Below are positions 36,556 to 54,641 of a stretch of 64,000 bases of DNA, in pieces. The notes under the pieces are model-generated. The model was given only the letters and a program-made list of their open reading frames with translations. It did no database searches and was not told where the DNA came from. Origin of the DNA: Escherichia coli (lineage in GTDB: Bacteria > Pseudomonadota > Gammaproteobacteria > Enterobacterales > Enterobacteriaceae); NCBI GenBank assembly GCA_902500205.1, contig GCA_902500205.1_4868.1. One strand, given 5' to 3'. Positions within the stretch are counted from its first letter, which is position 1; each line of letters begins with the position of its first letter. A program made the translations under genes and the position numbers.

Positions 36556-37443
36556 TTAAATATAATCAATGGCGAATAAAGGATCTTCGTCTACATTAGC
36601 GCCAGGCACCAGTAACATCGGGTCGTGATAGGCAGCTAAAATTTTGTTCAGGTCGGCATGTCTTTCGTTCAAGCGTTTCAAATCGGCCAACGTAACCGAA
36701 CGACTACGAATCTCAGAAACAGCTTCTGCTTCTTCTTTCGTTAAATCCACCTTCGTTAAGAGGAAGCTTACCAGCTTACTCAAATCCGCTTCTGTCGCCG
36801 GGTAATCCCCATATCGGGTTTGAACCAGGTGTTGCATCCACGGCTTACGAATACGTTTGGTGATTTCGAAATCGTCAGTCAGCGCATACCAGACAGAACG
36901 CTTTTTATCCCACACGAACTTATAGCTATACGCCATCATGTCCGCTAAACGGGTGATGCCGAGTTCTTTATATCCCTCGATATCGATGTACGGTTCGGTG
37001 TCGAAATACGTTTCCGTATCGGCAGGTACCAGTACAAAGTAGTAAGGGAATGAGCCCAGATAGTCCGGACTCCACCAACGGCGCGCCATCGGTTTTGCTT
37101 CGAGTTCGTCAAACGGTGTAAACATCAGTTCTAAATCGACACTGTTGTTCAAAATCCCTTCACTGAAGAAATACTTACCGTCGACTAACACGCCACGAGA
37201 GTTACCATCGCCGTTAAAGATAACGATGGCCTCTGCAACCATATCACGGATCTTAAACGTATTTTCTACGGTGTAGTTCTTCTTGTCGGTCAAGAAGCGA
37301 CCACGAACCTTTGGCCACTCACCAGGAATCTGTGCAATCAGTCTGACTTTGTCAGCGAGGTGTGCACGCACCGAATCTGGGGAAGATAGATGCAGCGGGT
37401 GGTTGAATGTGGTTTTATACGCAAGATGCAAATCGTTTTTCAT
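36556..37443 (-). CDS. hypothetical protein (295 aa) between precursors and rSAM genes
   Basis: ATG after GGAG; no recognisable motif; position suggests accessory or partner role. Confidence 0.5.
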   Translation of the reverse strand: MKNDLHLAYKTTFNHPLHLSSPDSVRAHLADKVRLIAQIPGEWPKVRGRFLTDKKNYTVENTFKIRDMVAEAIVIFNGDGNSRGVLVDGKYFFSEGILNNSVDLELMFTPFDELEAKPMARRWWSPDYLGSFPYYFVLVPADTETYFDTEPYIDIEGYKELGITRLADMMAYSYKFVWDKKRSVWYALTDDFEITKRIRKPWMQHLVQTRYGDYPATEADLSKLVSFLLTKVDLTKEEAEAVSEIRSRSVTLADLKRLNERHADLNKILAAYHDPMLLVPGANVDEDPLFAIDYI

Positions 37444-38560: not shown

Positions 38561-39763
38561 TTACTTAGTACCCGCTTCAGCTTGAACATCGTCGCGCGAG
38601 GTGAGGTTGTTGTTAACGTGAACAGCAGCCTGCACAACACCGCCATACTGTTTATGGAGGTAATTCGGGTGTGGGTTATCCGCAGCCGCATGGTTCGCCA
38701 GATTCTGGTTTGCCTGCGAAATTGCGTTGGTGTTGTTTACAACCTGAGTTTTAAGACTGTTGATTTGTCCTTGCAGGTTATCAATTTGCTGTTGGAAGTC
38801 TTTGCCCTGATTCTCAAGATCCGTGACACGCTGATTTGTTTCATTCAGCGCAGACTGAAGATCGTTAACCTTCTTCTGTAATTGCAACACCAGAGAATTA
38901 AGGTTAGCTAATGCTAACGACATTTTCTGGTAATTTTGAGCAACCACGTTAAGCTGGTCGTTCCACGCGGCTAACGAAGCCACAATTGCATCGATGCGTT
39001 GCCCCAACGCTGTGTCTGCTGCTCTTAAGTCGCCGATATCTTTGATAGTGGCGTCAATGGCAGTCTGTACACTTTGAATCAGAGCACGAATCTCCGTCTC
39101 CGTCAGGCCATTAACCTGATGAATGTCGAGATTGTGTACGTTACCTTCGGCGTTGATGTGGGTATTTAAGGCGTCGAGGAAGTCGTTTTTCAGACCACCC
39201 AGAATACCTTTAATTTCTTCCAGCTGTACTGCAGAGCCGGAGTTAATCGCATCTTTAATCCCCGCGAGTACGGTAATGATATACTCAAAACCGTAGATAT
39301 CGCCAAGGTCTTTATACGTCGGTGCGGACGGGAACGTATCGGGTACGTTCCGAAGATCCTTGAAGTCCACCACGCGGTCTTCAATTTTCAACGACGCAAT
39401 CGCTTGTCGGATGCCTTCGACGTTCGCGGACTGAAAACCACCGACAACTTGCGCAGAGACTTCGATATCAGTAGGAATGGCCGTGTTAGTTACCACCACA
39501 CCCATGACCACTTCGCGGTTCTTGGTCATTTTCTGATATGCAGTATGTGCAAAAATCAGCTCGTAGTCTGTACCGCGTTTGTACGGGTAGACACCTGGTT
39601 TATTCGCAGCCGCCAAGCGGAAGGTATCCGCGTAGAAAGCTCCGTCAGGAAATGCAAAAGCCCGGTTAACTTTACCAGAACCTAACGTAATACGCCGCGT
39701 AACGGCGTTCGACGTTAATGTCCCGGTAAGGTCGAGCGGGTACTGATAAATGATTTCGGCCAT
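38561..39763 (-). CDS. tail-fibre-like coiled-coil protein (400 aa)
   Basis: ATG 39763 (MAEIIYQ..) 7 nt after AAAGGAG; N-terminal module shared with the three giant proteins (..AFYADTFRL....G.DYELIFAH); Gln/Asn/Leu heptad coiled coil in C-terminal third. Confidence 0.65.
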   Translation of the reverse strand: MAEIIYQYPLDLTGTLTSNAVTRRITLGSGKVNRAFAFPDGAFYADTFRLAAANKPGVYPYKRGTDYELIFAHTAYQKMTKNREVVMGVVVTNTAIPTDIEVSAQVVGGFQSANVEGIRQAIASLKIEDRVVDFKDLRNVPDTFPSAPTYKDLGDIYGFEYIITVLAGIKDAINSGSAVQLEEIKGILGGLKNDFLDALNTHINAEGNVHNLDIHQVNGLTETEIRALIQSVQTAIDATIKDIGDLRAADTALGQRIDAIVASLAAWNDQLNVVAQNYQKMSLALANLNSLVLQLQKKVNDLQSALNETNQRVTDLENQGKDFQQQIDNLQGQINSLKTQVVNNTNAISQANQNLANHAAADNPHPNYLHKQYGGVVQAAVHVNNNLTSRDDVQAEAGTK

Positions 39764-39810
39764 TGCCAAACTCCTTTGATTGGGGCTTCCTTGCCCCATA
39801 GCGCTAACTG

Positions 39811-42800
39811 TTAGGTACGGAACATAAGATTGACCTGGATAATATCAGGCTGTTGCCATCCTCTCTCGTTCACCCAATCGTGCGCAATCGTTAACGTAAG
39901 ATCATCGCCATCCCACGCCACGATCGGCGGTGGGAATAAACCCTGAGCGCCCGTGGTAACAACCGGAATTGCACCCGCCACATCCACAAACGTGTAGCTA
40001 CGGCTGTTCAAAACAACTGGTGTGCCGTAGGTCTCTCCCCCCAATGGTAAGATTTGAATCTTACTATCCGAAAGATCGGTGGTGATTGGTAGTCCCCCCG
40101 CGTCCGTGAAAAGCCAAGAGCAAATATGCTGGTTGGCCATCTCAAGCGCTGGGGAACTCAACACAGCAGAGAAAGTAAACGTACATGGCACGCCTGCGGG
40201 CAGAGAGTGCTGTTTGTGATACACGGTATGTGGTGTTGGCATTAGCACTTCTGGATTTTCTTCAATGTTAACATCCTTACCTTCCGCCTCGACGTTGTAT
40301 AAAAATCTATCTACCGTATCCCATGGGGCGATGTTGACATTAAAGGTCGTTTCTACTCCCGGTGTACCTGGGACGACGAATTTACTTTGTATCACCACTA
40401 TCATCATTCCTGAGGTCGGAGAGAAAGCAGGCGTAGGGATACCCACCCACTCCATTCCCAACGATGCCGCTTCACCGTTCTCATCGGCCGTTACCGTCGC
40501 AATTGTTGTAGGATGTTTCCAAAACGCCCCCGACTTGTTTGCCTGAGTAAACGCCGGCAAAGTTTTCAAGCCTTCGAAACGTTTGGAGACCATCGGTTTA
40601 CCGCGACGCTGTGCGTCAGATACGGTATAAAGCAACTGACTATCCAGATAGCCTTTCGTAGCATCGATAGACAAAGGACCCATCGCTTCTTTACGCAATG
40701 GTGCCAGTCTGCCCGTTGCCGCATCCCTTCCCACTTCCACATCATGCTTATTCTCAACCGCCGCATGTTCCAACAGTTGTTTCACCGCCCCCAATCGCTT
40801 AGCATGTTCGACGTTAGTCTCGACGACTCGCGACGAGCCCGTTTTAACATACCCGATATAGAGTTCCGTTTCAGTGTCTGGATGTTGAATCACGTCCATT
40901 ACGTACTTCGGTGTACCATTTTCTACCTTGGCGTGCAGGTAGAATGTCCGGTTCTGATGGTTTGTTGGAAATGCTGCGCTGAGGTCAATATACCACGTAG
41001 GCAGCTTATAAGTGCTCGAGCCGAAACGCAGGTCAACTTCCTCAGTCACATATACCAGCCAACCTTCAGCTGTTTCCACACCAGCAATGACAACCGATTC
41101 AGTCGGGCCACTAAAATTAGGAGCCGCGACAAAATCTCTCGACGACGTTGCGATACCACCACAATAGACGTAGTCGAGAGATGAGTTGTGTAGCATCACC
41201 TGATCACGATGAGCCAGATAAGCTGGGCTGACTGGAGTGTGTGACGGTGCCATACGTCCAACGCCGTGTGGAGCAGAAGAACGCGTCCAGGTACCATTAG
41301 ACAGCGTAAGACCAACAGCGTAGTTAAGCGCACCCAAGTCGCCAATCAGGCGCAAGGTTAACGTGTGTGGAAGATACAACCCGAACTGCGTACCATCTAC
41401 CGACACCAGTGTAGGTTGTCCCGGCCGGCGTGTTTTTCCTCCCGTTATCTCACCCAACGTAGCATAGTTCAAGTCATAGTCGAGGTTGTTATAGAAGTCA
41501 AACAAAGCCAATATCGCTGCGGGGAATGTTACCTGCCCGTTGCTGATTGTTGGTTTCAGTGTAAAGTAGTAGATATCCAACACGTTAACGTTGTTCACAG
41601 TACGCGTACATGCTACTTGTGCTAACGTGAGCGGTGTGGCCGTACCAATGCCGATGAACCAAACGGAGAACAATGCCTTTCCTGCGTTATTTGCGGCAAG
41701 GATAAATTCCGAAGCATAACCATTCGCAGCGCCTGCCGGTGCACCGTCGATGATCATCTGCTTCATCTTATTCCATTCGGCTTGTGACAGCGTCAACCGA
41801 TCGGCATGAATCGTGAAAGTGCCAGAAACGTTGTGGTAAGGGAATGTTTCTGGCCCTGTGCAATACCAGCCGTTTAACTCTGTACCAGGCGACGCCGGTG
41901 TAACAATGTGGCACATCTGCGACAGATTCTCGTACGTGGTAGAATCCACTACACGACGATTGTTAGTTGGTCCATACCCCGCTTTACCTGAGTAAGTGGT
42001 GTTCGGATCAAACTCAACTTCAATTGCCAAACGGGAACGTGGCTGTGACAACCAGATAAGTCTGGAATTCGCTCCCAGAGTCAGCGGATACGCCATACCC
42101 AGCTCGTAGATAGAACCACGACCTTGGTTTAACGTTACCGCACTAAACCTTCTGGCAGTGAAGTTGTAGTCGCACGACAGGTACTCGTACCAACTCACAC
42201 CGTCGTCTAACGTGGTAATCGTGACAATTGGCATTAGGTCACGATCGCCGGCATGTCCTTGCGAAACGATATATTTGTCTTGCGATGTTGCAAAGGTTTG
42301 GTTATTAGCTTGACCTTCGCCCCACTTCCGGCTCGGAATCCCAATCTCAGCACCACCGTTATAACGAACCGCGGTAAGATCAGCCACAATAGGGAATCGA
42401 TCAGCCCCTTCCAGCGTTACCGTCATTGAACTGCAATCAACAACAAAGCTTGACACCCATTGTTTAAAGCTAATCGTCTGCCCTGTGCTGGAGGCAAACC
42501 AGACTGTTGGCGTTAAACCAACACGAAATTTCAGCCCATCAACACCAATCGCGTGATTACACTCAGGACCATGTACAAAGTTGATTGCATTGTTCCACTT
42601 CGCTAACGCGTCTGCGTAGATCTGTGTAACTGGTGCTGGGAGCGCATCGGAAGGTGCACGTTTCTGTCCCTGTCGCAGATAAACGTTTTCACCCGACGTT
42701 AATATCCCGCCTGTTAACGCATCCGCCACAAACGTGTTGCTACCACCCGGATTAAGTTCGTTGAGTGCGATGCTACGCATACTCACGAAATAGTTACCGG

Positions 42801-44994
42801 AGGTAAGCACCGTACGCAACAGGTAGACACGTTCATTACAAACAATCAAATCGTCTGTAGAAGCGTTTGGAGCCCACGGTGCTGTCGTTACTGTGCCCGC
42901 ACCATTACCGTTCTTGTAATCACCCAACACCACTTTAACAACACGATGATGTTTTGCATGGTCAATCGTCCCATCGAAGATGACCAAGTAGTACGCACCG
43001 TCACTGCCTAAGCAGATCATTGCATCTGTACCGGTAATCACAATAGCAACCAGATTCACCCCAGGATACGCCGACATTCCAGCGGGTCGATAACGTACGG
43101 ACGTCTGCTGCATATTTTCCAGCGTATTGCTTGGCGACACATCGGCATAGGCGTAATAGATAGTCCAGTCACCTGGTGGATTCCCGTTAGAACCGTTACG
43201 GAGCGAGTAAACCTTACCAGACTCGTAACGCGCCAAACCTTTCTGCCAGGTTTGGTTTTTGGTATACCCTTCGTAGTTCCCCTGGACTGGTATAGGCAAG
43301 AAGTTATTGTTGCCGTACGATGATCCGCCGACAGTCCATGCGGGCAACAGCGTAGCAATCTTGTCATTCAGTGTGTCAATCTTTTGTTCAAGCAAGAAGC
43401 CCTGACGCGAAGTGACCATCTTATCCGAGGTAGTGTCGATTGCATCCCACAGTTTAGCCAAACCTGTAACAGACGTGGATGCGTACGGCACGTTATCGAG
43501 ATCTGCAATGGTGTGGGTGTGCGTTGTAAGCGCTTTGCCTGATAGCACGGTACGCAATGCGTTAGTAACTGGCTTTTCTAACGGTCCGGTATTGTTCATC
43601 TTCTCAATACCGAAATCTGCCGCGGTTAAGGTCAGATGCATCTGCCCGTTTGAATCTAATACAAACCCTTTACCGTTGACTGTATACGTGTCGTCCACAT
43701 ATCCGTCGAGTTTGTTCTTCAAGTCAGTAACAGCTTTTTGGGAAATCGCTGTGGACGCTGCAGCGGACGCCGAAAGGTTAGTAATCGCAAACAAACCCTG
43801 CACAGTTGTGGTTGCTGCAGGCAGCTCCGCATTCATGTAAAGTTTGTTTGTTTCTTTACCAGAGCCGTAAATCTTCAACGTGTCGCTGGACTTGAAGTAG
43901 GCGTTTGCTGGAAGTATCTTCACCGAGGTCAAGTACATCTTAACCATATCCGGTGTAACAAGATACACGCTATTATACACAGGTGCAAGCACACCCGCAT
44001 CATAATCGCCCCACTTGTCACCTGCTTTACCCGAGTGAACCCAAAGCGTGTTCAGACCAGCACTGAACTCCGTAGCGATGCCCGGTTCGTTGTTATCCTG
44101 GTCAGCTTTTAATACCAGCGGTTTTGTCGAGGTGATGATGAACTTCTCACCCTTCATGCTGATAACGTGACCAGACGTTGTTTGGAACGTAATCGCGTCG
44201 TTATTCAGAACACGCATACGGCCCAGTAAATCACCCAGGGTATTATCCAGAAGCATGTCAACGTGTTTCTGTTGGATGCCACTGGTAGACATTAACGTCA
44301 CTAGCTCTGCCAGGGTACGTCCGAATGCCTTAGTCGCATCTACGGCTTTGCCGAGTACCGGGAGAGCGCCAATGTCACCGCAGGTGTAACCATGTGCATT
44401 TTTAATCAGGTGGTGTTGATACATTTCGTCATCAAACACCTGCTTACCGTTCTGATAAATCAAATCGGTAACTTCGGCAAAAGCCTCATCCAGCTCGTGG
44501 GCGCGCTCTAAAATACCCAGACGGATATCTTCCAACGCCTTTACGATTTCATCGCGAAGAATCGCTTCTTCGAGGTCTTTTGGCGGGTCGATTGGCGAGA
44601 TAATCGGCGGATATTTCATCAGCTCAGACCAATCGCAGTTACGCGGGTCTTTCATATCTGTCTTAACCAGATACTTGCCGATTTCAGAAGCAGGGATGCG
44701 ATACTGTCGACCAACCGACAACAACTCGTATTCTACCTCTGTGGCGTTCAGCAGCATTATGCTGCCGTATATTGCATCGTTCTCAGCCTCGGCTAATTCC
44801 TGGAAGTAATGTCCTAGGAAATAATCGAGACCTTCTATTAACTTGCGTTTGGTTCCGGTTGTTTTATCGGTAACGGTTAACGTTAACCCGATGCGATAGA
44901 ACGGTGCTTCGACGGGAATGACCGCCGAATAACGGTTCGGGTAAGTAGCGGTACTGAGCGTACCGTTAAACTGCGCCGCATCTTCTCTCGGCAT
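39811..44994 (-). CDS. giant tail-fibre / receptor-binding-like protein (1727 aa)
   Basis: ATG 44994 (MPREDAAQF..) after AGGAG; shared N-terminal module (APFYRIGLTL...GLDYFL); fibre-type motifs (TTTVQGLFAIT, ISQKAVTDL, HTHTIADL). Confidence 0.75.
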   Translation of the reverse strand: MPREDAAQFNGTLSTATYPNRYSAVIPVEAPFYRIGLTLTVTDKTTGTKRKLIEGLDYFLGHYFQELAEAENDAIYGSIMLLNATEVEYELLSVGRQYRIPASEIGKYLVKTDMKDPRNCDWSELMKYPPIISPIDPPKDLEEAILRDEIVKALEDIRLGILERAHELDEAFAEVTDLIYQNGKQVFDDEMYQHHLIKNAHGYTCGDIGALPVLGKAVDATKAFGRTLAELVTLMSTSGIQQKHVDMLLDNTLGDLLGRMRVLNNDAITFQTTSGHVISMKGEKFIITSTKPLVLKADQDNNEPGIATEFSAGLNTLWVHSGKAGDKWGDYDAGVLAPVYNSVYLVTPDMVKMYLTSVKILPANAYFKSSDTLKIYGSGKETNKLYMNAELPAATTTVQGLFAITNLSASAAASTAISQKAVTDLKNKLDGYVDDTYTVNGKGFVLDSNGQMHLTLTAADFGIEKMNNTGPLEKPVTNALRTVLSGKALTTHTHTIADLDNVPYASTSVTGLAKLWDAIDTTSDKMVTSRQGFLLEQKIDTLNDKIATLLPAWTVGGSSYGNNNFLPIPVQGNYEGYTKNQTWQKGLARYESGKVYSLRNGSNGNPPGDWTIYYAYADVSPSNTLENMQQTSVRYRPAGMSAYPGVNLVAIVITGTDAMICLGSDGAYYLVIFDGTIDHAKHHRVVKVVLGDYKNGNGAGTVTTAPWAPNASTDDLIVCNERVYLLRTVLTSGNYFVSMRSIALNELNPGGSNTFVADALTGGILTSGENVYLRQGQKRAPSDALPAPVTQIYADALAKWNNAINFVHGPECNHAIGVDGLKFRVGLTPTVWFASSTGQTISFKQWVSSFVVDCSSMTVTLEGADRFPIVADLTAVRYNGGAEIGIPSRKWGEGQANNQTFATSQDKYIVSQGHAGDRDLMPIVTITTLDDGVSWYEYLSCDYNFTARRFSAVTLNQGRGSIYELGMAYPLTLGANSRLIWLSQPRSRLAIEVEFDPNTTYSGKAGYGPTNNRRVVDSTTYENLSQMCHIVTPASPGTELNGWYCTGPETFPYHNVSGTFTIHADRLTLSQAEWNKMKQMIIDGAPAGAANGYASEFILAANNAGKALFSVWFIGIGTATPLTLAQVACTRTVNNVNVLDIYYFTLKPTISNGQVTFPAAILALFDFYNNLDYDLNYATLGEITGGKTRRPGQPTLVSVDGTQFGLYLPHTLTLRLIGDLGALNYAVGLTLSNGTWTRSSAPHGVGRMAPSHTPVSPAYLAHRDQVMLHNSSLDYVYCGGIATSSRDFVAAPNFSGPTESVVIAGVETAEGWLVYVTEEVDLRFGSSTYKLPTWYIDLSAAFPTNHQNRTFYLHAKVENGTPKYVMDVIQHPDTETELYIGYVKTGSSRVVETNVEHAKRLGAVKQLLEHAAVENKHDVEVGRDAATGRLAPLRKEAMGPLSIDATKGYLDSQLLYTVSDAQRRGKPMVSKRFEGLKTLPAFTQANKSGAFWKHPTTIATVTADENGEAASLGMEWVGIPTPAFSPTSGMMIVVIQSKFVVPGTPGVETTFNVNIAPWDTVDRFLYNVEAEGKDVNIEENPEVLMPTPHTVYHKQHSLPAGVPCTFTFSAVLSSPALEMANQHICSWLFTDAGGLPITTDLSDSKIQILPLGGETYGTPVVLNSRSYTFVDVAGAIPVVTTGAQGLFPPPIVAWDGDDLTLTIAHDWVNERGWQQPDIIQVNLMFRT

Positions 44995-45026
44995 TGCAAA
45001 CACTCCTAATCTGTAATAAAACGGAG

Positions 45027-45056
45027 ACCGCCCTCCCAATAACGGAAGGGCGGTTT
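45027..45056 (-). terminator. weak intrinsic terminator between giant fibre genes
   Basis: ACCGCCCT..AGGGCGGT hairpin followed on the minus strand by CTCCGTTTTATT; likely partial read-through. Confidence 0.4.
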
Positions 45057-45089
45057 ACCTACGGACTACCCGCCCGTAGGCAGTCCGTC

Positions 45090-48000
45090 CTAAGAGGCCC
45101 ACTCACCCGAGTTGTTGCCTTCGTTTCTACGTTCAGTATCCAACGTTTGTAAAATCCAATCCCATGTCCTGGTGGGGATGTGGAATGGATTACGCTTCTC
45201 AATGAGAATCGTTTCGCCACCAGTGCGAAGTTCCACCGGTGTCGTTTCAGTAATCACGAACATCGGATTACCACTACTACCTACGCCATTAATAGTGAAC
45301 TTCGCTTGCAACGGCGGCACAGAACCTTCCGGAGGCACGAACACGATGTGAATTGGCTGCATCGGTTTCGTGCGGGCAAGAGTCCTGGATATCTGAACAG
45401 CTGTTGTCGATGCACTGAAAGGTATAACATTACCCGGAATTTTCTCACTACCCACGATGATATATCCAGGGTAGTTAGAGAGCATTGTCCCATTTACCGA
45501 CACAAAACGCTCAGTTTGAGTTGGGCGATAAGCCCGCATAAAGCCGTACTTCCATTCACCACCGTTAGACGTATAGTCTGCAGGAGCCGACTCAAGTAGC
45601 GGAGCACCACGTTTCTGCAGCCCTTTATAAAACGGCGCTGGGAGTTTACCGTTCGGTGCAAGTTCCGGATAACCCTCACTTGCAGCAGACATCGTGATGT
45701 ATTCCGTAACCGGGTGATCAACGTTATCTCCAAATGACGCAAAAGGTACCGTTGTTACTGTCATCTCCTCGTGGTCGGAAGACTGTCTATCTGGCGTCCT
45801 TTCAATATACGACTCAAACAGTGAACGTAAATAATGGAAACGATTTATATCCACATCTGAGATGATCGGCTGCATCAAACCGTGGTTAATAGTCACGTTG
45901 TCTCGAGTTTCAATACCGGAAACGTGGATGGCTAGCGCCCCACCTTTAAAGTAATCGATCGCATCAAACGGAATGTCGTATTCCATTTCGTAAACCTGCA
46001 CCAGCGGATTGGCTATCAACTTAGAAACCATTGAGATGCGCAGTACCTGCGTATCAACAATGTATCGATAACGTACAAGCCAACGATCTCCAAGCGGCGC
46101 AAGCTCACTATCGGTATGAACCGAAAGAAAATCTAAACACTCGGTAGATTGGCTCGTCAGGTTTTTAATTACCCTCGGATTTTCAAGCACCTTATTTGTA
46201 ACACTGCCCTGCGTGGTCGAGATGATGCCTCCAGTTGCTTGGTTATAAGGAGACCTGATGAAGCCACAATTCAATTCTGGACGATTGCCACTCCATCTCA
46301 GTACCCTAGTCATGCTTTTATCATCTGCAGACGGGGCCATGAAGTTTAATGTGATATCGCGAACGCGAACTGTTTGTGCTTCCGACAAATCAACATCGAC
46401 CACCACAGAACCTTCAAACGTCGCCATCCCTTTTTCTTTCGGGTTGCTTGGTGTAAACCAGCAGTACGGTGATGCGCTTTCTGTGGAGACAACCGCTCCA
46501 ACAAACACTAGGCTTGAAATGGTACTATCAAATTTATAATCGAATAACCCTCGGTCTAATCGAATATAGTGGTTACCAGAAACTGGACTATTAGGGTACG
46601 CATAAAGCCACTGTTTAGGCAACGGATCGACTTTGTTTAGCGGTAACATTTTTGGGTTATCCGTCAACGACCAGTCGGCATTACTCACTCCGTGCGCCAG
46701 ACGTGTTTCGAAGTGCCGTTTAAGTTCGGACGCCATGCCAAAATCAAACGTCGTTTCAAACTCGTAAGTCGTACCTGCAACCAATCCCGTCTCGGGTACA
46801 TCAATATGTCCGATATAGCCGCGTTCCAAGTTAATACCTTCCGTGTCCACAATAGGTTCGGCGCGCGAATATAACGCATCGGTTATCATGTTCACATAGA
46901 GGTAATGCCTTAAACCATTCGGCGTCTTAACAAACTCCTGCAGGCGGGCAACTTTGGTGTTTTTATCCGAGGCCCCAACCGCAAAGTCACCGTCGTAAAT
47001 TGTGAAACGAATTGCGGCTGCTTTAGCGCTATCGTTACACTCGGCACGGAATGCTAAGCAGTGTTGCTTCCACCCCTCCTTGACAGTCGCCTCCAGATAC
47101 CCCGCTTCTGTAATACCCGCACCGATAATTTCACCGTCCAGATAAACAGAAACAGCACCACCGCCACGAACCCAAATCCGTAGTTTACCAGAGTCGCAAC
47201 GAACCCACGTTTTCGCCAAGAGGTTAACGACTGACAAATCACCCATTCCGGTTGTCGTTAAACCAATCTGCGCACCGTAGTTCGTTTCCGGGACGGCAAC
47301 CTCAAACCCACTAAAATCAATACCGTCACCGATATTAATTACCGCGTTCTGCCACGTTCTTTCCATACGGTTATCTGGAGAGAACCACTGGAACATCGGG
47401 GTGGTTTGCAGGTCTATCGAACCAGATACCGTCCCCTCTTTACGTGCACCATTTAACAGATAGAAATAATTCAAATCCGTTACGGCGAGGGTGGTACGTG
47501 TAGATCCCACAGTCCAAGTCTTACCACGCACAGCGGCAAAATCGGTCACGGAATCCTCTTTCGCGTTTGCTAGCGCAGCTGCAACTACGTCTAAACGTTT
47601 TGACAAATCGTTCAGAACGTTCGGGGTAACGCCGCGATTACCCGACAAGCCGTTTAGGTTGGTAGAATATCGAGCGATACCGGGAACTGTTTGAGAAGCC
47701 GTTGGGATCTGTAAATCGGCGAAGTTGTGATGGTGACCTTTATCACTAAGACCGGTAACTGCTTCTGCCAACGCATCAGAAAGTGGTTTATCGACGTCAG
47801 CTGTGTTATCAGCCAAGTCTAAACCTAAATCCTTTTTCGTCAGCGTTCGACTACCAGTGTTCATCGGCTGGTTATTCAGCAGCGTTGTCTTCCTGACGTA
47901 CGAAGACAGGTCGCCCTCATACGGCAAAAGCGCCGACGGGGTGACTGCTTGTCCCTTGACTACATCGCTCGGCTTATCAGTCAGCGTCACAACGCCTGGT

Positions 48001-49220
48001 TCAGAGGTCGTCGCGGGTTTGGCTGTGACCTTCCCGGTGACGGGATCGGCTTTTGACCCTTTACCCGTGAAAGTGATGCCGTTCACCCCGCTAATGTACA
48101 GTTTGTTGTCATCCGGGTCAACGGTACCACCGCCGGTACCAGGGTCTTGTTGATAGCCCATGAGAGCAGTTGTGGTCAGTAACGTCGTGCCATTAAGCGT
48201 CAGCTTATCCATCCCCAAGGCACTGCCAGTCGACTCAATACGTAATGTATTGATGCCTGCTTTCCACTCCATAAACCGGACGGTTCCAGTAGTGTCGGCA
48301 TACCCACACGCCAACACAACAGAGCCATTAGATTTAAGAGTGAATGCCTCAGCAGAGAACACAATTTCGGATTCACCAGCAGGAGAACGGAACAGGGCAC
48401 GAGTACCAGATATCGTCGCGTTAAACACCCCTTTGGATTCTTTCGATACCCATTTAGAAATGTACTTGTCGATATCCGATTGTTGCAGACCCAGTGCACG
48501 GACCTCGCTGGTTAACTGACGCAACGTCTTTCCATACGCCAGGAAAGTATCTGGCGTTTTCAGGTTGACAGGATGCGCACCGGCCTGCGCCGCGGTAGTC
48601 CCATGAGGGTTAGTCGACGCAATGTGTCCGGGGTAGTTAAATGTGGCGATTTCAGTTCCTAAGCCCAAAACCGCATCTTTCAGCTCAGTAAGCTTTTCAC
48701 GAATCTGCTCGTTGGCCGCCCCGGCATCTAACTCCACATCATGCACTGCAGAGGCAACATACTTTTTATTCAGCATGTCTGACCAAGCTACCGCTGCAGG
48801 GGTGGCTGGGTACAGGGAAGGTCGATTACCTAAAAGCAGCCAATCTGCAGCCGTTGGATTGTTGAGTGCCTTAATTAGCTCATCTAACATCTCAATCAAA
48901 CCACTGTAAAACGTACCCCCGAGCATCTGGCCTTCAAAGACCACCGCACCACGCAGTTTAGGGTTAATAAGATGCACCCCGCAAAACACCGGGGTCGTCA
49001 CCGAGTCGTCCAACGGTGTTAAAGCATACTCCAGCTCATAGTCCGTCCCGCGGGTAAGCGGTATGGACGAGCCGGCGAGCCTTACCACCAATCCTTCGAA
49101 AAACGGGCGATGATCTAGCATCACCACCCGATCGTTAGGATTGTCGGAGTCGATGATACGTTCCTCGATGAAGTGACACTCAGGATTTACACCCCGAGGA
49201 TCGTAAGGATACGTTTTCAT
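45090..49220 (-). CDS. giant tail-fibre-like protein (1376 aa)
   Basis: ATG after AAGGAG; shared N-terminal module (..PFFEGLVVRL......GTDYELEYAL); classic fibre motif EPGVVTLTDKPSDVVKGQAVTPSAL. Confidence 0.75.
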   Translation of the reverse strand: MKTYPYDPRGVNPECHFIEERIIDSDNPNDRVVMLDHRPFFEGLVVRLAGSSIPLTRGTDYELEYALTPLDDSVTTPVFCGVHLINPKLRGAVVFEGQMLGGTFYSGLIEMLDELIKALNNPTAADWLLLGNRPSLYPATPAAVAWSDMLNKKYVASAVHDVELDAGAANEQIREKLTELKDAVLGLGTEIATFNYPGHIASTNPHGTTAAQAGAHPVNLKTPDTFLAYGKTLRQLTSEVRALGLQQSDIDKYISKWVSKESKGVFNATISGTRALFRSPAGESEIVFSAEAFTLKSNGSVVLACGYADTTGTVRFMEWKAGINTLRIESTGSALGMDKLTLNGTTLLTTTALMGYQQDPGTGGGTVDPDDNKLYISGVNGITFTGKGSKADPVTGKVTAKPATTSEPGVVTLTDKPSDVVKGQAVTPSALLPYEGDLSSYVRKTTLLNNQPMNTGSRTLTKKDLGLDLADNTADVDKPLSDALAEAVTGLSDKGHHHNFADLQIPTASQTVPGIARYSTNLNGLSGNRGVTPNVLNDLSKRLDVVAAALANAKEDSVTDFAAVRGKTWTVGSTRTTLAVTDLNYFYLLNGARKEGTVSGSIDLQTTPMFQWFSPDNRMERTWQNAVINIGDGIDFSGFEVAVPETNYGAQIGLTTTGMGDLSVVNLLAKTWVRCDSGKLRIWVRGGGAVSVYLDGEIIGAGITEAGYLEATVKEGWKQHCLAFRAECNDSAKAAAIRFTIYDGDFAVGASDKNTKVARLQEFVKTPNGLRHYLYVNMITDALYSRAEPIVDTEGINLERGYIGHIDVPETGLVAGTTYEFETTFDFGMASELKRHFETRLAHGVSNADWSLTDNPKMLPLNKVDPLPKQWLYAYPNSPVSGNHYIRLDRGLFDYKFDSTISSLVFVGAVVSTESASPYCWFTPSNPKEKGMATFEGSVVVDVDLSEAQTVRVRDITLNFMAPSADDKSMTRVLRWSGNRPELNCGFIRSPYNQATGGIISTTQGSVTNKVLENPRVIKNLTSQSTECLDFLSVHTDSELAPLGDRWLVRYRYIVDTQVLRISMVSKLIANPLVQVYEMEYDIPFDAIDYFKGGALAIHVSGIETRDNVTINHGLMQPIISDVDINRFHYLRSLFESYIERTPDRQSSDHEEMTVTTVPFASFGDNVDHPVTEYITMSAASEGYPELAPNGKLPAPFYKGLQKRGAPLLESAPADYTSNGGEWKYGFMRAYRPTQTERFVSVNGTMLSNYPGYIIVGSEKIPGNVIPFSASTTAVQISRTLARTKPMQPIHIVFVPPEGSVPPLQAKFTINGVGSSGNPMFVITETTPVELRTGGETILIEKRNPFHIPTRTWDWILQTLDTERRNEGNNSGEWAS

Positions 49221-49232
49221 TCAAAAATCTCC

Positions 49233-52200
49233 TTAATCACGAATAATAAGTGTTCGACCTGACGTGTTTTTCGGATTGAACGTCATCATCTTGGACGGGT
49301 GTGCCACCAGTGGAATTTTACCTGTATCCACTGGTCGGAACGAACTGTATGAATAGTTGCACATCGCGCTGTTCATCTCATTGATCGTTGAACCTGCATC
49401 CACCACGCCAGTAAAGAATCTTGCGCGGTTTAAGCCGGAATAGTTAATCGCATAGTCAAGGAACGTGGCGTAATAACGATTCTTTGTCGGCATCGTGTTC
49501 AGGTTAGCGTAAGTCAAACGCGCTTCTGTGTCGGAACTAAACAAACCACCCACGCCGTGATAAATCGGCGTACTCGGATCGGTAATCAGTTTCGTCAAGT
49601 CGATATAGTCAGGACGGAGACGGGTAGACAAATCCTCAGTCCACGACTCGCCGGTCGACTGCAAGGTGTATTTCAGCGTCTTTGTTGTCGCGGTTAGCGT
49701 CAGCTCAAAGTTAATCGTTTTGGAATCGATGTTAATCGTTCCCACGAACGAAATACCGTCCGCTGTTCGCGCGTGGCTGAAACGCACCGATGGATTAAGT
49801 GCCGTCCAGTCATGGCCGGCACCAGTAACGCCATTCAGACCAATAACAACCTGTGCAGCACGTCCGTAGTTAACCGCGATTCCCGCATACGTGCTCACGC
49901 CGCCTGGAGTGGTAATACGTCCTGCGGTGCGTGCGACGAGTACAGAAATACGGTGCATGAACGTGGCCGAGTGATGGCAACACCCAATTACCGTTTCTAG
50001 CACACTGTCCGCTGTTGCGGTTAAAGGTGTCCACGTTGCGGTAATGCCGTTATTCTGGAACATCGGGAATGTGTTGTGGACAAAACGATAATCGGTTACA
50101 GATAAACTGGTTGTTTTAAACGTCCATTTATCAGCAGCCGGATCGTAGTCCGCTTTCAACATAGGTGTATAGCTGCTAGCCTGCGCGTAACGCCAATCGG
50201 CATCTATACGTTTTGTACCCGGTGCGCCCGTGGACCACACAGGCCCGCCAGTACCGTAAGTAAATCCGAATTCAGCTTGCGTCATGCCCCGACGAATATG
50301 GGCGTTATCATCCTCGATATGCTCGCCTAATTCACGGAACTCACCTAAACGCGTCACGTTGCGGATTTCTACAAAAACCACACCGGTTTCACTGGTGATG
50401 ATGGAACCTATTTTGGTCATCGTCTCAGTTTCTGCCGTGTTTGGATTTTCGTAGATAATGTACTTGCCGTCATCGCCCGCCGCGTCAACATACACGCCAA
50501 ACTCAGCATCTTCGTGCGTCGCTGGGAATAGCTCCGCCAAGTTAAATGTGGAGAGAGGTACTTTGTACTCGCGACCAACGAAATAATCGTTCGCTTTAAT
50601 AGTAACCATCCAGTCGGTGTAAGTGATGCCGTTTTCAATGATGTCCGTGCCGGGTAAACCGTAACGAATAATGTTGATTGAAGCACCAGAGTCGACTGTC
50701 TTCGCAACCTTCTCTATCTCTGTGATGGCGTCCGCCTGTCGGATGACCTCACCGCCGTCTAATGCCAGCGTGGCATCGTCAACCGCGGTGCCGAACTGTA
50801 CTAAACCGAACTCCGTCGTTGTTGCACGCTTAATCCCGAGCGCAGCAGGAGTGTGTGTGTGACCGACGACTGCGTACTTGTCCAGCTCAGCTCGTTGGAG
50901 CGGGGAAATCGGCAATTGCACATCTGGGATGTTCTGTACGTTCGATAAGCCGAAGTTAGTTTTATCGATGTAAATAGAACTCGTCAGTGGCATGTCGTTG
51001 ATGTACGATTTAACAGCAACCAACTTGCCCGTAAACTGCTGATCCAATTTCTTGATGAGTGCCGGCGTTGCGGCCAAGTCCTCACGATCACCGAATTCAG
51101 TAGCCAACAAACGGACAGCCATCAGGCCAAGGTCGTCGGACTCCGGTGGAACAAAAGTACAAATGAACGGAACAGACTGAATACCGTTGCCGTTAATGGT
51201 TACAGTAGCTGTGGATGTTCCGTAAAACAGTCCATCACCACCTGACTCGTTACCCGGCAGGTACGGCCCGACCGTAGTAGGGTCCAATAGTTTCTTACCG
51301 TTGAACTCCAATCCACGGGAATCCGGATAAAGGATGAGTTGGTTAGCCCCACCTTGCCATGTAATCGGATTGTTCCCGGCGTTAACGGTTTGCGAATCGC
51401 GTCCAATAAAACGGATAACCTTCGGGTCAACCGTGAATTGTGCACCCACTCCTTCAGACTCATCGGTACCCACTGCTGACGTTATCGAAGTCAGGCCAGG
51501 CTTCATACCGAAAGTGCCGTTGATAGACTGTGCAGCCGCCGGTAAACGTAAAAGCTTATTCGCCAGCGTTGACAGTTTCGGCAACAGATTGTTAACGTAA
51601 TCTGTCAGCTGCGGTTGCGTTTTTCCGTATACCAGTGTCGCGTCCGAAGCAATACCGTTATTCTCCAAAGCACGGATTGCGCCCCACGAATCGCGATGTG
51701 GGTTATCCTTGCGCGGCACGTGCGTATGTGCCGGTGCATCACGGTACAGCTTATCGACAATCTGGTGATATTTTACCAGCAGCTGGTACACGTCGTTGTT
51801 AACGTCAGGTGCCGGTGCGCCTGGTAATGAACGAATCTGGACGTAATCGTTCTCACCTGCCCACCAGTTTAGGTTGACGCCCGATTTAAACTTCAACCAT
51901 TTTGCGACATCAGTTTTCTGATACCCTGGTGCAAATTCGCTCGGTGGGTTGTCAACGTTAAAGCTGTAGTTAACGGTTTGCTTGCTTGTTTTAACGGTAA
52001 TGTCGTAAACGCCGTTACCTTCGCGTCTGACCACGCTAAGCTCAATATCACCCGCCAACTCGGTATCGGTCAGGCCAGTCGTCAACGTATAGCTGTAATT
52101 AGACGAACCAGAACCAATCGCCGTCGTTAAGGTAAGATAAATCGCGCGTTGCTTCAACTGAAGACGCAGGATACTTGTCCCACCGTTTGCGTAACAGAGC

Positions 52201-52946
52201 ATCCAATCGATCAACTCGCCTGGGTTTAACGTTGTTTCCGGTGGAATGCTCGGTAAACGGTGTTTTACCGCTAACGAATACGCATTGAACGTCGTGTTCT
52301 GGTAAGATAACGAATAACGACGACGAGACGCGTTATACGTGTAGCCGCCAGTACCGTCGTACGTCGCATACTGCTCGGATGTGATAAGCGTGACACCGGC
52401 GCGATATTGAAGGTCTAACGTGTTACGAGCAATCGGGTCAACGCGACTGATCGCTTCACCGAGCTTAGCGCCAACCGCAACAATGGCTTCCATCAACTCG
52501 GATTCGCCACGCCAGTTTTCCCAGTCGAACTTAATATCGACCGGTGGGAAATATAAATCCCCAATGACGTTATCCCATTGGCAGTCCACGGGATAGCGAT
52601 CTTTATTCGCTTCTCGTTCTGCGGCGATCATTTCTGCAGTGGCTTCACCGATGCCAATTGCGTGGTAATCGAGTGTAAAGCCACTCTGATATTTCGGGTT
52701 GGTAATCCACACACCACCATGACAAACATGGCCAGTGCGTGCCATGCCCGTAACGTACGCATGGGTGATGACGTAATCATCACCTAATGTTAATTTCTTG
52801 CCGCCACTCTTGACCACCAGGGATGTGGTATAAAAGGGGGCGTGTGCGGGGAACAACATCCGGTACTTAGTACCGATCGGCGTTACCGCTTCACCGGTCT
52901 GCATATTCCCCGGTTCTTGATAGTGCGGGTCAGGGACGACAGCCAT
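49233..52946 (-). CDS. giant tail-fibre-like protein (1237 aa), first gene of minus-strand operon
   Basis: ATG 7 nt after AAGGAG; N-terminal module (..APFYTTSLVV.....LGDDYVITHA); VGHTHT and TTEFGLVQFGTAVDDATLALDGGEV fibre-like segments. Confidence 0.75.
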   Translation of the reverse strand: MAVVPDPHYQEPGNMQTGEAVTPIGTKYRMLFPAHAPFYTTSLVVKSGGKKLTLGDDYVITHAYVTGMARTGHVCHGGVWITNPKYQSGFTLDYHAIGIGEATAEMIAAEREANKDRYPVDCQWDNVIGDLYFPPVDIKFDWENWRGESELMEAIVAVGAKLGEAISRVDPIARNTLDLQYRAGVTLITSEQYATYDGTGGYTYNASRRRYSLSYQNTTFNAYSLAVKHRLPSIPPETTLNPGELIDWMLCYANGGTSILRLQLKQRAIYLTLTTAIGSGSSNYSYTLTTGLTDTELAGDIELSVVRREGNGVYDITVKTSKQTVNYSFNVDNPPSEFAPGYQKTDVAKWLKFKSGVNLNWWAGENDYVQIRSLPGAPAPDVNNDVYQLLVKYHQIVDKLYRDAPAHTHVPRKDNPHRDSWGAIRALENNGIASDATLVYGKTQPQLTDYVNNLLPKLSTLANKLLRLPAAAQSINGTFGMKPGLTSITSAVGTDESEGVGAQFTVDPKVIRFIGRDSQTVNAGNNPITWQGGANQLILYPDSRGLEFNGKKLLDPTTVGPYLPGNESGGDGLFYGTSTATVTINGNGIQSVPFICTFVPPESDDLGLMAVRLLATEFGDREDLAATPALIKKLDQQFTGKLVAVKSYINDMPLTSSIYIDKTNFGLSNVQNIPDVQLPISPLQRAELDKYAVVGHTHTPAALGIKRATTTEFGLVQFGTAVDDATLALDGGEVIRQADAITEIEKVAKTVDSGASINIIRYGLPGTDIIENGITYTDWMVTIKANDYFVGREYKVPLSTFNLAELFPATHEDAEFGVYVDAAGDDGKYIIYENPNTAETETMTKIGSIITSETGVVFVEIRNVTRLGEFRELGEHIEDDNAHIRRGMTQAEFGFTYGTGGPVWSTGAPGTKRIDADWRYAQASSYTPMLKADYDPAADKWTFKTTSLSVTDYRFVHNTFPMFQNNGITATWTPLTATADSVLETVIGCCHHSATFMHRISVLVARTAGRITTPGGVSTYAGIAVNYGRAAQVVIGLNGVTGAGHDWTALNPSVRFSHARTADGISFVGTINIDSKTINFELTLTATTKTLKYTLQSTGESWTEDLSTRLRPDYIDLTKLITDPSTPIYHGVGGLFSSDTEARLTYANLNTMPTKNRYYATFLDYAINYSGLNRARFFTGVVDAGSTINEMNSAMCNYSYSSFRPVDTGKIPLVAHPSKMMTFNPKNTSGRTLIIRD

Positions 52947-53013: not shown

Positions 53014-54276
53014 GTGACTACTGCTTATCAAGTGCGGGCCGACAGCGCTTTTGGCTTCTCTCGAGACACCCGAACTTGGGGAACCATCGATGTCACGCAG
53101 CCCTTAAATACCCTTTGTGCTAACTACCACTTTTTCGAAGTAGGACTAGAAGCACTAGGTGCTGAATATACCTTCTATAGCCAGTATCACCTGGCTGATT
53201 TACAAAACCGTACGGACACGTTGCAAGATTGGTTAAACACCAAGTCAGGAATCGCGATTCCAACGCTTGGGAAGGGCCTACCGAAGCTCGAATTCGTTGA
53301 GGCACATTACCAGTCTATTAATGCAGATGTGCCCGTAGAAACGCACCTGTGCCCTCCTGGGTACCATTACACTCAGGACTTCAATCCCGATGATGCACAC
53401 GACGTTGTTGTAGTCTGCGACGATGAGTGGAAAGAGAAATACCGTACTGGGGTGCTGTACAACATCAACGGCCAGTGGGTACCTCACCAATCTGACCCAG
53501 TGGGCGTTCGCTTAACCGGCGCTGGTAATATCGTGCGGCGTGCCAATACACCTGACATCGGCTGTCTGGTGATGGCAAACATCGGTAAAGTAAAGACCTA
53601 CCCCATATCCGGTTTAACGATGAACAAACTCGATACTACGCGAGATTACTATTCTTCGTTAATGTTGACCTTACCCGATTCCATTACAGGGAAAACCGTT
53701 GGGTTCGTCATCGGAGGTATTCTGCATTGGTTGCCGCCGCAGGGCTATTTCAGCGACCGTGCGATTATGCTGAGTCTGCCAAACCTTAGCGTGGCGAAGA
53801 TTGTATTGGAAACCCGTCGCTATTACGATTGGGACGCCATCGGTGTAGGTGATTTAAGTACGCCTACGTCCGTTCAACGTATTCGTAACTCAGAAACGTT
53901 AAAAGCGTTGCTGACGCACGAATCCTCGTTTATCTTTACGATAGACAACCCGTATCTCGAAAAAGAGATTCACGGAATAAGCCACAACGCTATCTGGGGC
54001 CGGTTCTATTTAAAAGACCCAACTGACCCAGATGGGAAGAAAACGCTAGGTCCTATCTTTAACCGTATTGGTAAATGTGTAGGGTACTGGCCGACCTGGG
54101 AAGAAGGGGAGTGGGTCTTTAATACCACATTCTTCGACCGGGAAAACTTTTTGTTGGGGAACGCGCGTTGGTATAACCAGAATTTGGTAAACGACGCGCA
54201 GGCAATCGTCGGGCCTTTCGGGGCTTGGGGTAAGCCATTTGTTGAAATGCATCGCTACAAAGCACGAAAAAAATAA
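53014..54276 (+). CDS. hypothetical protein (420 aa)
   Basis: GTG start after AGAGGAAACAGCCA; divergent from the minus-strand fibre operon. Confidence 0.55.
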   Translation: MTTAYQVRADSAFGFSRDTRTWGTIDVTQPLNTLCANYHFFEVGLEALGAEYTFYSQYHLADLQNRTDTLQDWLNTKSGIAIPTLGKGLPKLEFVEAHYQSINADVPVETHLCPPGYHYTQDFNPDDAHDVVVVCDDEWKEKYRTGVLYNINGQWVPHQSDPVGVRLTGAGNIVRRANTPDIGCLVMANIGKVKTYPISGLTMNKLDTTRDYYSSLMLTLPDSITGKTVGFVIGGILHWLPPQGYFSDRAIMLSLPNLSVAKIVLETRRYYDWDAIGVGDLSTPTSVQRIRNSETLKALLTHESSFIFTIDNPYLEKEIHGISHNAIWGRFYLKDPTDPDGKKTLGPIFNRIGKCVGYWPTWEEGEWVFNTTFFDRENFLLGNARWYNQNLVNDAQAIVGPFGAWGKPFVEMHRYKARKK

Positions 54277-54326: not shown

Positions 54327-54337
54327 CTGCAGGCCGA

Positions 54338-54547: not shown

Positions 54548-54641
54548 TTACTTATCTCCATTAACAAATGATAGCAGAAGAACCCTATGTTCAACTACTT
54601 GTACTTCGAGGCATATTAACTGCCCCGACTCGTAAATTAGT

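Follow-up and report, generated by a model that had tools for sequence, protein, structure and literature searches.

A probable tail-fibre set sharing a gp131-like N-terminal module in an SPN3US-like jumbo phage

Organization of the locus

The window (the whole stretch of DNA analysed, 64 kb) belongs to an SPN3US-like jumbo phage with 97.8% identity to coliphage EC001 over a four-gene region. The four open reading frames of 1237, 1376, 1727, and 400 aa that an earlier note on this DNA had described were found on the minus strand at exactly the same coordinates (Table 1), and they are orthologues of SPN3US gp170, gp169, gp168, and gp167, respectively. The gene order and lengths from gp167 to gp171 are identical in SPN3US and the window, and the proteins share 92-100% amino-acid identity per 100-residue block, the variable cassettes excepted. 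The four genes are present in SPN3US, EC001, and JN03, with 95-98% nucleotide identity over the region. The longest reading frame of gp168 starts at a TTG at 45039 and encodes 1742 aa (1727 from the ATG), and that of gp167 encodes 412 aa (400 from the annotated ATG). No Pfam family covered the N-terminal module or any long stretch of these proteins and their orthologues, and the neighbouring genes had no Pfam match at E≤0.01. PDB sequence searches with all four proteins returned no match for the three giants (gp168, gp169, and gp170) and only generic coiled-coil matches for the 400-aa protein.

Table 1 Features of the fibre-gene region; nucleotide positions are those of the window.
Feature	Residues	Nucleotides	Strand	Basis
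gp170 orthologue, 1237 aa		49233..52946	-	orthology to SPN3US
gp170 N-module	~1-175	~52422-52946	-	profile matches
gp170 lineage-variable insert	~200-400	~51747-52349	-	cross-genus identity
gp170 shaft	~387-723		-	similarity among giants
gp169 orthologue, 1376 aa		45090..49220	-	orthology to SPN3US
gp169 N-module		~48696-49220	-	profile matches
gp169 shaft	~190-575		-	similarity among giants
gp169 all-beta multi-domain C-terminus (predicted)	575-1376	45093-47498	-	structure model
gp169 two-allele (mosaic) cassette	~860-1200	45621..46643	-	identity drop
gp168 orthologue, 1727 aa		39811..44994	-	annotated ATG; orthology to SPN3US
gp168 N-module		~44470-44994	-	profile matches
gp168 shaft	~165-560		-	similarity among giants
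gp168 mild variable segment	~1500-1700	~39895-40497	-	within long divergent C-terminus
gp167 orthologue, 400 aa		38561..39763	-	annotated ATG; N-module and coiled coil
gp167 N-module		39209-39763	-	phrog_2163, E 1e-107
gp167 long coiled coil	~200-370		-	coiled-coil matches
gp171 orthologue, 420 aa, GTG start		53014..54276	+	phiKZ gp130 homologue

The shared N-terminal module

The earlier note had proposed that all four proteins begin with a related segment of ~60 aa. The related segment was present in all four, but its length is ~170-185 aa. When the N-termini were aligned, their similarity proved significant, with BLASTP and independent profiles giving values far beyond chance. Pairwise BLASTP connected the 1376-aa protein with the 1727-aa (E 2e-22) and 400-aa (E 3e-8) proteins and the 1237-aa with the 1727-aa protein (E 3e-4); the pairs 1237/400 and 1727/400 were not significant by BLASTP and were joined via profiles. 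The PHROG profile phrog_2163 matched the N-terminus of all four (E 4e-14, 8e-23, 8e-88, and 1e-107). An HMM built only from the N-termini of phiKZ gp131, gp133, gp134, and gp135 recovered exactly these four among the 333 six-frame open reading frames of the window (E 3e-20 to 3e-8; next-best frame 0.27), with gp167 giving the strongest match (E 3e-20) and having phiKZ gp135 as its best phiKZ match. In the reverse direction, a profile of the four window N-termini matched gp131 (2e-23), gp135 (2e-22), gp134 (4e-11), and gp133 (6e-10) and none of the remaining phiKZ proteins in a set of 17.

Homologues of the four-sequence N-terminal alignment were first sought with a word-indexed search, which yielded just nine uninformative fragments; an exhaustive HMMER scan took its place, and in it the module profile matched 2981 cluster representatives. 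In the 150 best matches of the 2981, which range from 159 to 2164 aa in length, the module was always N-terminal, starting at residue 1-39. Among cultured phages, 288 records matched the profile, and 40 of 40 among the matches listed were jumbo phages of 203-322 kb. Other members of the family join the module to PKD/Big_9 domains or to a Peptidase_S74 fibre chaperone.

The module consists of a small beta domain, a degenerate W..P..FPP.H.H-type fibre-repeat-like motif, and an amphipathic helix. An AlphaFold2 model of gp167 residues 1-185 (mean pLDDT 83) placed the beta domain at residues 20-106, followed by helices. A helix directly follows the module in all four proteins, located at residues 159-184 in the gp167 model and read from sequence in the others. 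Positions 114-159 of the family profile aligned to repeats of the 9d93 "tail collar fibers gp4" chain (E 1e-9), whereas alignment to the W..P..FPP.H.H repeat of R-type pyocin fibres was not significant (E 0.65-0.93). Foldseek found no fold match for the predicted N-domain in the PDB (best E 0.19). Taken at the sequence level, the comparisons support identification of the N-module as a ~175-aa gp131-like N-terminal domain homologous to the phiKZ domains that cryo-EM located at the fibre-attachment sites, beneath gp130 (PMC13250141); the proposed role of the shared N-terminus as an attachment module is supported by the same homology.

Shafts and distal parts of the giant proteins

An additional shaft region of ~350 aa is common to the three giants at 22-24% identity, and PHROG tail-fibre and minor-tail profiles matched on it. 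The fibre motifs noted earlier were confirmed: the 1376-aa protein contains EPGVVTLTDKPSDVVKGQAVTPSAL, the 1727-aa protein contains TTTVQGLFAIT...ISQKAVTDL, and all three giants have HTHT/HHH boxes. With regard to fibre-type motifs, namely the W..P..FPP.H.H (Phage_fiber_2-type) repeat and ATT..G..LA...A.TP..L boxes, the proteins agree with generic phage tail fibres. The Pfam family PTR was sub-threshold in the window proteins, as was Phage_fiber_2 in one orthologue. No Pfam or PHROG tape-measure or wedge profile matched the giants, in keeping with fibre or peripheral-baseplate proteins, and the tape measure of SPN3US is gp239 (PMC10052503). The coiled coil of the 400-aa protein gave a weak, non-specific tape-measure match (E 0.003).

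Across relatives, the N-terminal halves of the giants are conserved and the C-terminal halves are divergent and fast-evolving, as expected from the earlier suggestion that the distal parts differ. In gp170, an insert of ~200 aa sits between module and shaft; it shows 0-22% identity across genera and is missing from pSal-SNUABM-04. The C-terminal segment 765-883 of gp170 is homologous to gp168 residues 1297-1417. The variable segment of gp168 has 81-87% identity to SPN3US and Proteus phage 7, compared to 96-100% elsewhere in the protein.

Structure prediction, carried out for the C-terminus of gp169, modelled it as a string of beta-sandwich domains matching lectins and carbohydrate-binding modules (CBMs), which makes at least gp169 a putative receptor binder with carbohydrate ligands. 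When full-length gp169 orthologues were aligned to the C-terminal fragment of the window protein and the profile was run against the PDB, the only match was an insignificant one to a lectin (E 0.55). A gp131-like C-terminal propeller was also considered for gp169 and rejected: the model is a beta-sandwich, and BLASTP similarity to gp131 is confined to the N-module. Within this C-terminus, a cassette of ~1 kb drops to 50-84% amino-acid identity to SPN3US, compared to ~98% in its flanks. At the nucleotide level, it is at least 99% identical to SaP7, EC001, Lh1B, and JN03 and 72.6-73.5% identical to SPN3US, the intact SPFM records, the SPLA phages, 1252, SEGD1, MET_P1_082_240, and Proteus phage 7. 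SPN3US carries its own type of allele, whereas the window carries the EC001/SaP7/JN03 type. With two alleles within the species, the cassette is a candidate host-range determinant; host label and allele did not match cleanly, two of the phages with the window-type allele having been propagated on E. coli and two on Salmonella.

gp167 and the adjoining gp171 gene

The fourth protein differs in layout: gp167 has no distal globular domain beyond its coiled coil. It is uniformly conserved (~80% identity to phiEaH2 over its full length) and has been detected in SPN3US virions by mass spectrometry. Mostly coiled coil as it is, gp167 seems to be a structural partner and not a receptor binder like the giants may be.

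By tblastn, the gp171 orthologue matched PHIKZ130 (E 3e-8), and a gp171-family HMM matched phiKZ gp130 at E 2e-22. In all eight chimalliviruses scanned (phiKZ, phiEaH2, CR5, pSal-SNUABM-04, pVp-JHP1101, RAY, EL, and Goslar), a divergently transcribed gp130/gp171 homologue adjoins two to four module genes. In four genera whose hosts differ, the four-gene set is retained in the same order. Relatives nevertheless vary in how many module genes they have (two in Goslar, three in RAY and EL), so that a hetero-oligomer of four fixed parts cannot be universal. SPN3US gp171 is essential and tail-associated (PMC5105663), and, by analogy with gp130, it is likely the docking platform for the N-modules.

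Discussion

Homology, synteny, domain layout, variability pattern, and predicted fold form the established part of the explanation that we favour. It holds that an SPN3US-like (Seoulvirus) chimallivirus encodes its tail-fibre set in these four genes, with a common anchor, a co-assembled composite base, and diverged host-binding ends, and we give it a probability of about 0.6 as a whole. The core of the finding is already known. SPN3US gp168, gp169, and gp170 were described as "paralog family C, baseplate/tail fiber candidates" (PMC5694885; PMC10052503), and the virion and tail location of the family and its link to phiKZ gp131 were published in 2016-2017 (Thomas et al. 2016, PMC5105663; Ali et al. 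2017, PMC5694885). In SPN3US, the orthologues belong to the virion and are missing from or reduced in tailless particles (PMC5694885; PMC10052503), and gp168 was listed as a tail protein "expected essential" (PMC5105663). New here are gp167, which carries the same N-module, as a fourth member of a family of which the SPN3US papers name three; the predicted lectin-like fold of gp169; and the two-allele cassette within the species. The pairing of the gp130 homologue with an array of module genes across the eight chimalliviruses is an incremental point.

The arrangement in phiKZ is alike in its homologous ~175-aa N-domain, its four module paralogues in a row, and the divergent gp130 homologue adjoining them. 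The size pattern, however, is inverse, with one 771-aa and three ~460-aa proteins in phiKZ and three of 1237-1727 aa and one of 400 aa in the window. Outside the N-module, the only BLASTP similarity between the two sets was a weak extension of the gp169-gp133 match to residue ~350-376, and phiKZ gp131 ends in a seven-bladed beta-propeller, whereas lectin-like beta-sandwiches are predicted for gp169. Cryo-EM and immunogold located the gp131 family at the baseplate periphery or fibres of phiKZ. A 2026 cryo-EM atlas placed six gp131-like N-domains and a six-helix bundle beneath gp130 at each of the 12 fibre-attachment sites, the N-termini of the family lying at the fibre bases and the C-terminus of gp131 at the far end (PMC13250141). 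The composition proposed for a site, gp131x3 + gp133 + gp134 + gp135, is a candidate model from AlphaFold3 models fitted into ~6 Å density (PMC13250141).

We infer docking under gp171, co-assembly, stoichiometry, and ligands as follows. By analogy with phiKZ, the N-module would anchor each protein to the outer baseplate beneath gp171, and the N-domains and helices of different paralogues would pack six per site around a six-helix bundle. Since the phiKZ sites hold six N-domains from several paralogues, the paralogues here would be parts of one hetero-oligomeric fibre base, and packing of this kind would make the four proteins non-redundant subunits of a composite base, not interchangeable fibres. 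SPN3US spectral counts per kDa, semi-quantitative values that cannot separate 12 from 18 copies, agree with co-assembly: they are near-equal for the three giants (1.41, 1.08, and 1.00), close to that of the 12-copy portal (0.93), and 1.5-2.4 times higher for gp167. gp167 would serve as a structural partner in this base. Past the ~350-aa shaft, the three giant chains would split into different distal parts that bind host surface structures, with the recombining cassettes in gp169 and gp168 tuning specificity. SPN3US infection is flagellum-dependent, and carbohydrates are also likely ligands. SPN3US tails have been seen on flagella, attached via the baseplate or fibres (PMC7411985). Binding of multiple receptors by such a putative fibre set is plausible, but the observations lend no support to the broad host range that the earlier note had considered possible.

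The earlier note had concluded that several distinct fibres are carried on one virion, which is not borne out by the phiKZ sites, each of which holds N-domains of several paralogues. By this analogy, co-assembly into one hetero-oligomeric base is at least as likely as several separate fibres. It is still conceivable, at clearly lower odds than the composite base, that every paralogue makes a homotrimeric fibre of its own, the N-module plugging the four fibres into equivalent sockets for separate receptors. Homotrimers are the rule among phage fibres, each giant has the conserved H-x-H box and the fibre motifs in register, and the distal parts differ strongly; six N-domains per site could equal two homotrimers, and the two module genes of Goslar would fit 3+3. 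However, the phiKZ unit1 and unit2 sites look near-identical and each was modelled with four different paralogues (PMC13250141), and gp167 has a coiled coil in place of a distal globular domain. All four genes stay together in the same order across genera and hosts, and transposon insertions are tolerated in none of phiKZ gp131-135 (PMC12676376), so that all phiKZ paralogues seem essential, which is unexpected of alternative or redundant fibres.

It is improbable that the four proteins mainly build the outer baseplate, as struts or periphery, and leave host recognition to other proteins, such as the gp145/146-like fibres or DUF7941 filaments known from other chimalliviruses. The first description of gp131 as a "peripheral baseplate" protein, the term "baseplate/tail fiber candidate" in the SPN3US papers (PMC5694885; PMC5105663), the strong conservation of gp167 and of the N-terminal halves, and the extra DUF7941 system proposed for host recognition in Goslar all fit such a role. 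The fibre-base and fibre-tip positions in the phiKZ atlas (PMC13250141), the fast-evolving C-terminal halves with within-species cassettes, the lectin/CBM-like fold predicted for gp169, and the PKD and Peptidase_S74 fibre modules of relatives argue against it. A chance or compositional likeness of the N-termini, or a tape-measure or wedge function of the giants, has a negligible probability: two of the six pairwise BLASTP comparisons are not significant alone, but the PHROG and phiKZ-only profiles match all four proteins and nothing else in the window, and the giants match no tape-measure or wedge family.

The branched multi-spike systems of the CBA120/G7C type and the hyperbranched fibres of the jumbo phage phiKp24 are other modular fibres and spikes. 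They likewise combine conserved N-terminal attachment, divergent recombining distal parts, and several receptor binders per virion, but have no sequence relationship to the window proteins. Their homotrimeric spikes dock on one another via dedicated adaptor domains, whereas the paralogous N-domains of the window, by analogy with phiKZ, would lie side by side in a single base of six members.

Host recognition by chimalliviruses is poorly understood, the Goslar fibres being unresolved and those of phiKZ modelled at backbone level only, and genetic work on the group has SPN3US as its model. If the composite-fibre reading is true, host-range engineering must respect the whole four-paralogue set, and the gp169 cassette and the gp168 C-terminus would be the obvious sites for specificity swaps.

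A more specific arrangement is speculative and rather unlikely: ~12 sites, each with a gp167 homotrimer as coiled-coil core and a gp168/gp169/gp170 heterotrimer whose shaft co-folds and then splays into three lectin-like heads, would give a "three-headed" fibre reading flagellum and surface glycans at once. Read as such a heterotrimer, the size pattern is that of phiKZ reversed, the candidate phiKZ site having three copies of its long protein and a single copy of each short one.

The four fibre genes and their common N-terminal module

The 14.4-kb fibre region shared 97.8% identity with Escherichia phage vB_EcoM_EC001 and 95.2% with Salmonella phage SPN3US (species Seoulvirus SPN3US), a nucleus-forming jumbo phage of ~240 kb. 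The four minus-strand ORFs corresponded one to one to SPN3US genes and are named accordingly; lengths were taken from the annotated starts, favoured over slightly longer mechanical ORFs because homologues start at the same residues.

Features of the window around and outside the fibre cluster
Feature	Position	Strand	Remark
gp170 orthologue	49233-52946	-	1237 aa
gp169 orthologue	45090-49220	-	1376 aa
gp168 orthologue	39811-44994	-	1727 aa
gp167 orthologue	38561-39763	-	400 aa
gp171 orthologue	53014-54276	+	divergent; phiKZ gp130 homologue, tblastn E 3e-8
Gene between gp171 and the 310-aa gene	~54330-54550	-	~69 aa; annotated DUF1471 in SPN3US and pSal-SNUABM-04
310-aa gene	54755-55687	-	elsewhere annotated baseplate assembly or Mu gp45-like spike
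Radical-SAM gene	34298-35626	-	
Radical-SAM gene	35619-36569	-	
Counterpart of SPN3US DUF4376-annotated gene	33122-33793	-	near the radical-SAM pair
Tandem head-protein array	~13118-26009	+	ORFs of ~265-500 aa
Junction relative to SPN3US	~26031-26039		~3.45 kb of SPN3US (~128.3-131.7 kb) missing
Indel and replacement relative to SPN3US	10314-11621		10314-10375 replaced; 10832-11621 (~0.8 kb) without equivalent in the SPN3US segment compared

The N-termini of all four proteins could be aligned. In pairwise BLASTP, gp169 matched gp168 (E 2e-22, spanning ~540 residues) and gp167 (E 3e-8), and gp170 matched gp168 (E 3e-4); gp170 and gp168 showed no significant similarity to gp167. Profiles settle the relatedness: the independent PHROG family phrog_2163 matched all four N-termini (E 4e-14 to 1e-107), and an HMM built from the N-termini of phiKZ gp131, gp133, gp134, and gp135 picked precisely the four fibre ORFs (E 3e-20, 6e-13, 8e-11, and 3e-8; next-best ORF, 0.27) from the 333 six-frame ORFs of the window, the module being absent from every other ORF of the 64 kb. 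Alignment, phrog_2163, and the phiKZ-only HMM agree on the common module proposed in the earlier note, which measures about 175 aa instead of the ~60 aa given there; the fibre-type motifs it quoted were found in the sequences.

Of 17 phiKZ proteins tested, a profile of the window N-termini alone matched gp131 (2e-23), gp135 (2e-22), gp134 (4e-11), and gp133 (6e-10) but not the other 13; a deeper profile matched the phiKZ paralogues across residues 3-182 with E 4e-47 to 3e-23. In the 2026 phiKZ structural atlas (PMC13250141), these modules go by the name "gp131-like N-terminal domains". Among 1.84 billion cluster representatives, the window profile matched 2981 proteins, 1845 of them at E<=1e-10; in the best 150 of the 2981 the match always lay at the N-terminus (start residue 1-39) of proteins of 159 to 2164 aa. 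A family member's module was present in 288 cultured-phage records, and the matches listed (40 of the 288 records) were all jumbo phages of 203-322 kb with at most four copies each. Other members carry PKD/Big_9 arrays or a Peptidase_S74 fibre chaperone behind the module, which no Pfam family covers. In the AF2 model of the gp167 module, residues 20-106 fold into a small beta domain (pLDDT >90) with helices after it; the model matched no solved structure. Family-profile positions ~114-159 aligned to the tail-fibre repeat W..P..FPP.H.H, significantly in gp4, the tail collar fibre of 9d93 (E 1e-9), and without significance in R-type pyocin fibres (E 0.65-0.93).

SPN3US gp168, gp169, and gp170 have been named "paralog family C", found in virions and absent or depleted in tailless particles, and termed baseplate/tail-fibre candidates because of their similarity to phiKZ gp131 (PMC5105663, PMC5694885, PMC10052503). 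Our finding repeats this published family and therefore has little novelty; gp167, included in the SPN3US virion proteome without assignment to paralog family C, is a small addition of this analysis. SPN3US gp168 was "expected essential" and gp171 essential (PMC5105663). Infection by SPN3US depends on the flagellum, and tails were observed on flagella via baseplate or fibres (PMC7411985).

Conserved shafts and variable distal parts

Beyond the module, the three giant proteins (gp170, gp169, and gp168) have a "shaft" of ~350 aa in common (22-24% identity), with an NPH box, a globular segment, ATT..G..LA/A.TP..L boxes, and an H-x-H box conserved in register; in gp170, an additional ~200-aa insert separates it from the module. 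By block-wise identity, module and shaft were kept across genera (75-90% to phiEaH2, 35-50% to CR5), and the C-terminal halves dropped to 15-35%. gp167, a coiled coil after the module, was evenly conserved (about 80% to phiEaH2 along its entire length). Compared with phiKZ, BLASTP similarity was limited to the module, save that a weak gp169-gp133 match ran on to residue ~350-376, and showed no propeller of the gp131 type.

Within the species, gp169 residues ~860-1200 formed a sharp-edged cassette with 50-84% amino acid identity to SPN3US, against ~98% on either side. Its nucleotide sequences fell into two allele classes: the window type (>=99% identity) in SaP7, EC001, Lh1B, and JN03, and the other (72.6-73.5% to the window) in SPN3US, the intact SPFM records, the SPLA phages, 1252, SEGD1, MET_P1_082_240, and Proteus phage 7. 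One database variant had a second cassette (residues ~651-750), and gp168 residues ~1500-1700 varied more mildly (81-87% identity). Receptor-binding parts that are swapped by recombination would be expected to leave such a pattern. The AF2 model of gp169 residues 575-1376 (25-sequence alignment; mean pLDDT 79.6, pTM 0.68) was all-beta and multi-domain; Foldseek returned legume lectins (prob 0.98-0.99), the phage Chi tail-tip distal tail protein, and PA14-containing toxins, with no catalytic domain found in the model.

Orthologues of gp169 with ~1393 aa formed more than 100 distinct clusters at 90% identity; their C-terminal part shared 34-36% identity with the window protein. They lie on contigs up to ~222-227 kb long from isolate assemblies and sequencing runs of Salmonella, E. 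coli, and Shigella. This suggests that a widespread jumbo-phage lineage, apparently not yet described, accompanies enterobacterial isolates and has a strongly diversified gp169. In SPFM1, 5-10, 12, 14, 15, and 20 (LR535901, LR535903-LR535908, LR535911-LR535913, and LR535917), but not in the remaining SPFM records, the fibre genes matched only as 3-7 short pieces (88-93% identity); this looks like error-rich assembly (frameshifted ORFs, e.g. SPFM12_00113/114) and not biology.

Conserved layout and probable fibre assembly

The window has the phiKZ layout, a gp130 homologue followed by a module-gene array on the opposite strand; the gp171-gp130 homology also appears in Table 4 of PMC5105663. HMMs for both families found this layout in all eight chimalliviruses scanned (four module genes beside the gp130 homologue in phiKZ, phiEaH2, CR5, pSal-SNUABM-04, and Vibrio pVp-JHP1101, three in RAY and EL, two in Goslar). 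Beyond gp171, unannotated ORFs occupy the position of the ~69-aa gene at the same size in phiEaH2 and CR5, and the 310-aa protein had no Pfam match at E<=0.01. Just downstream of the fibre genes, two small ORFs separate them from the radical-SAM genes; the block 33122-36569 also stays beside the fibre genes in phiEaH2, CR5, and pSal-SNUABM-04 and might conceivably serve to mature or modify the fibres.

It is nearly certain that the four proteins belong to the fibres or the peripheral baseplate and have a common anchor. In phiKZ, fibres dock beneath gp130, where each of 12 attachment sites holds six gp131-like domains and a six-helix bundle, read by the authors as a candidate hetero-hexamer of three gp131 with gp133, gp134, and gp135 (PMC13250141). 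By analogy, the module and its following helix would anchor each chain beneath gp171 at the baseplate rim, six modules of different paralogues making one fibre base. We favour such a composite, co-assembled fibre (probability about 0.6). The phiKZ map supports it over four independent fibres, as do the retention of the complete four-gene set, in unchanged order, by four genera that infect different hosts and the lack of transposon insertions in each of phiKZ gp131-135. SPN3US spectral counts per kDa, near-equal and portal-like for the three giants (1.41, 1.08, and 1.00; 12-copy portal, 0.93) and 1.5-2.4-fold higher for gp167, also support co-assembly, yet are too coarse to tell 12 from 18 copies. 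Against co-assembly, the composition given for phiKZ is a candidate model at low resolution, and relatives carry 2 to 4 paralogues, so two homotrimers per site would fit too. Separate homotrimeric fibres, one per paralogue, are a less likely arrangement. A three-headed gp168-gp169-gp170 heterotrimer beside a gp167 trimer seems improbable. Of the earlier note's interpretation, the anchor module with diverse distal parts is supported; that a virion bears several distinct fibres, or has a broad host range, is not established.

Differences from SPN3US and the head-protein array

The sequence missing at the junction spans three neighbouring "virion structural protein" genes, paralogues from the head array, and its flanks meet with a 9-nt overlap, which suggests deletion through recombination between paralogues. 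The tandem array itself corresponds to the SPN3US "paralog family B" of head proteins, which has about 20 members in SPN3US and is much larger than the fibre family.
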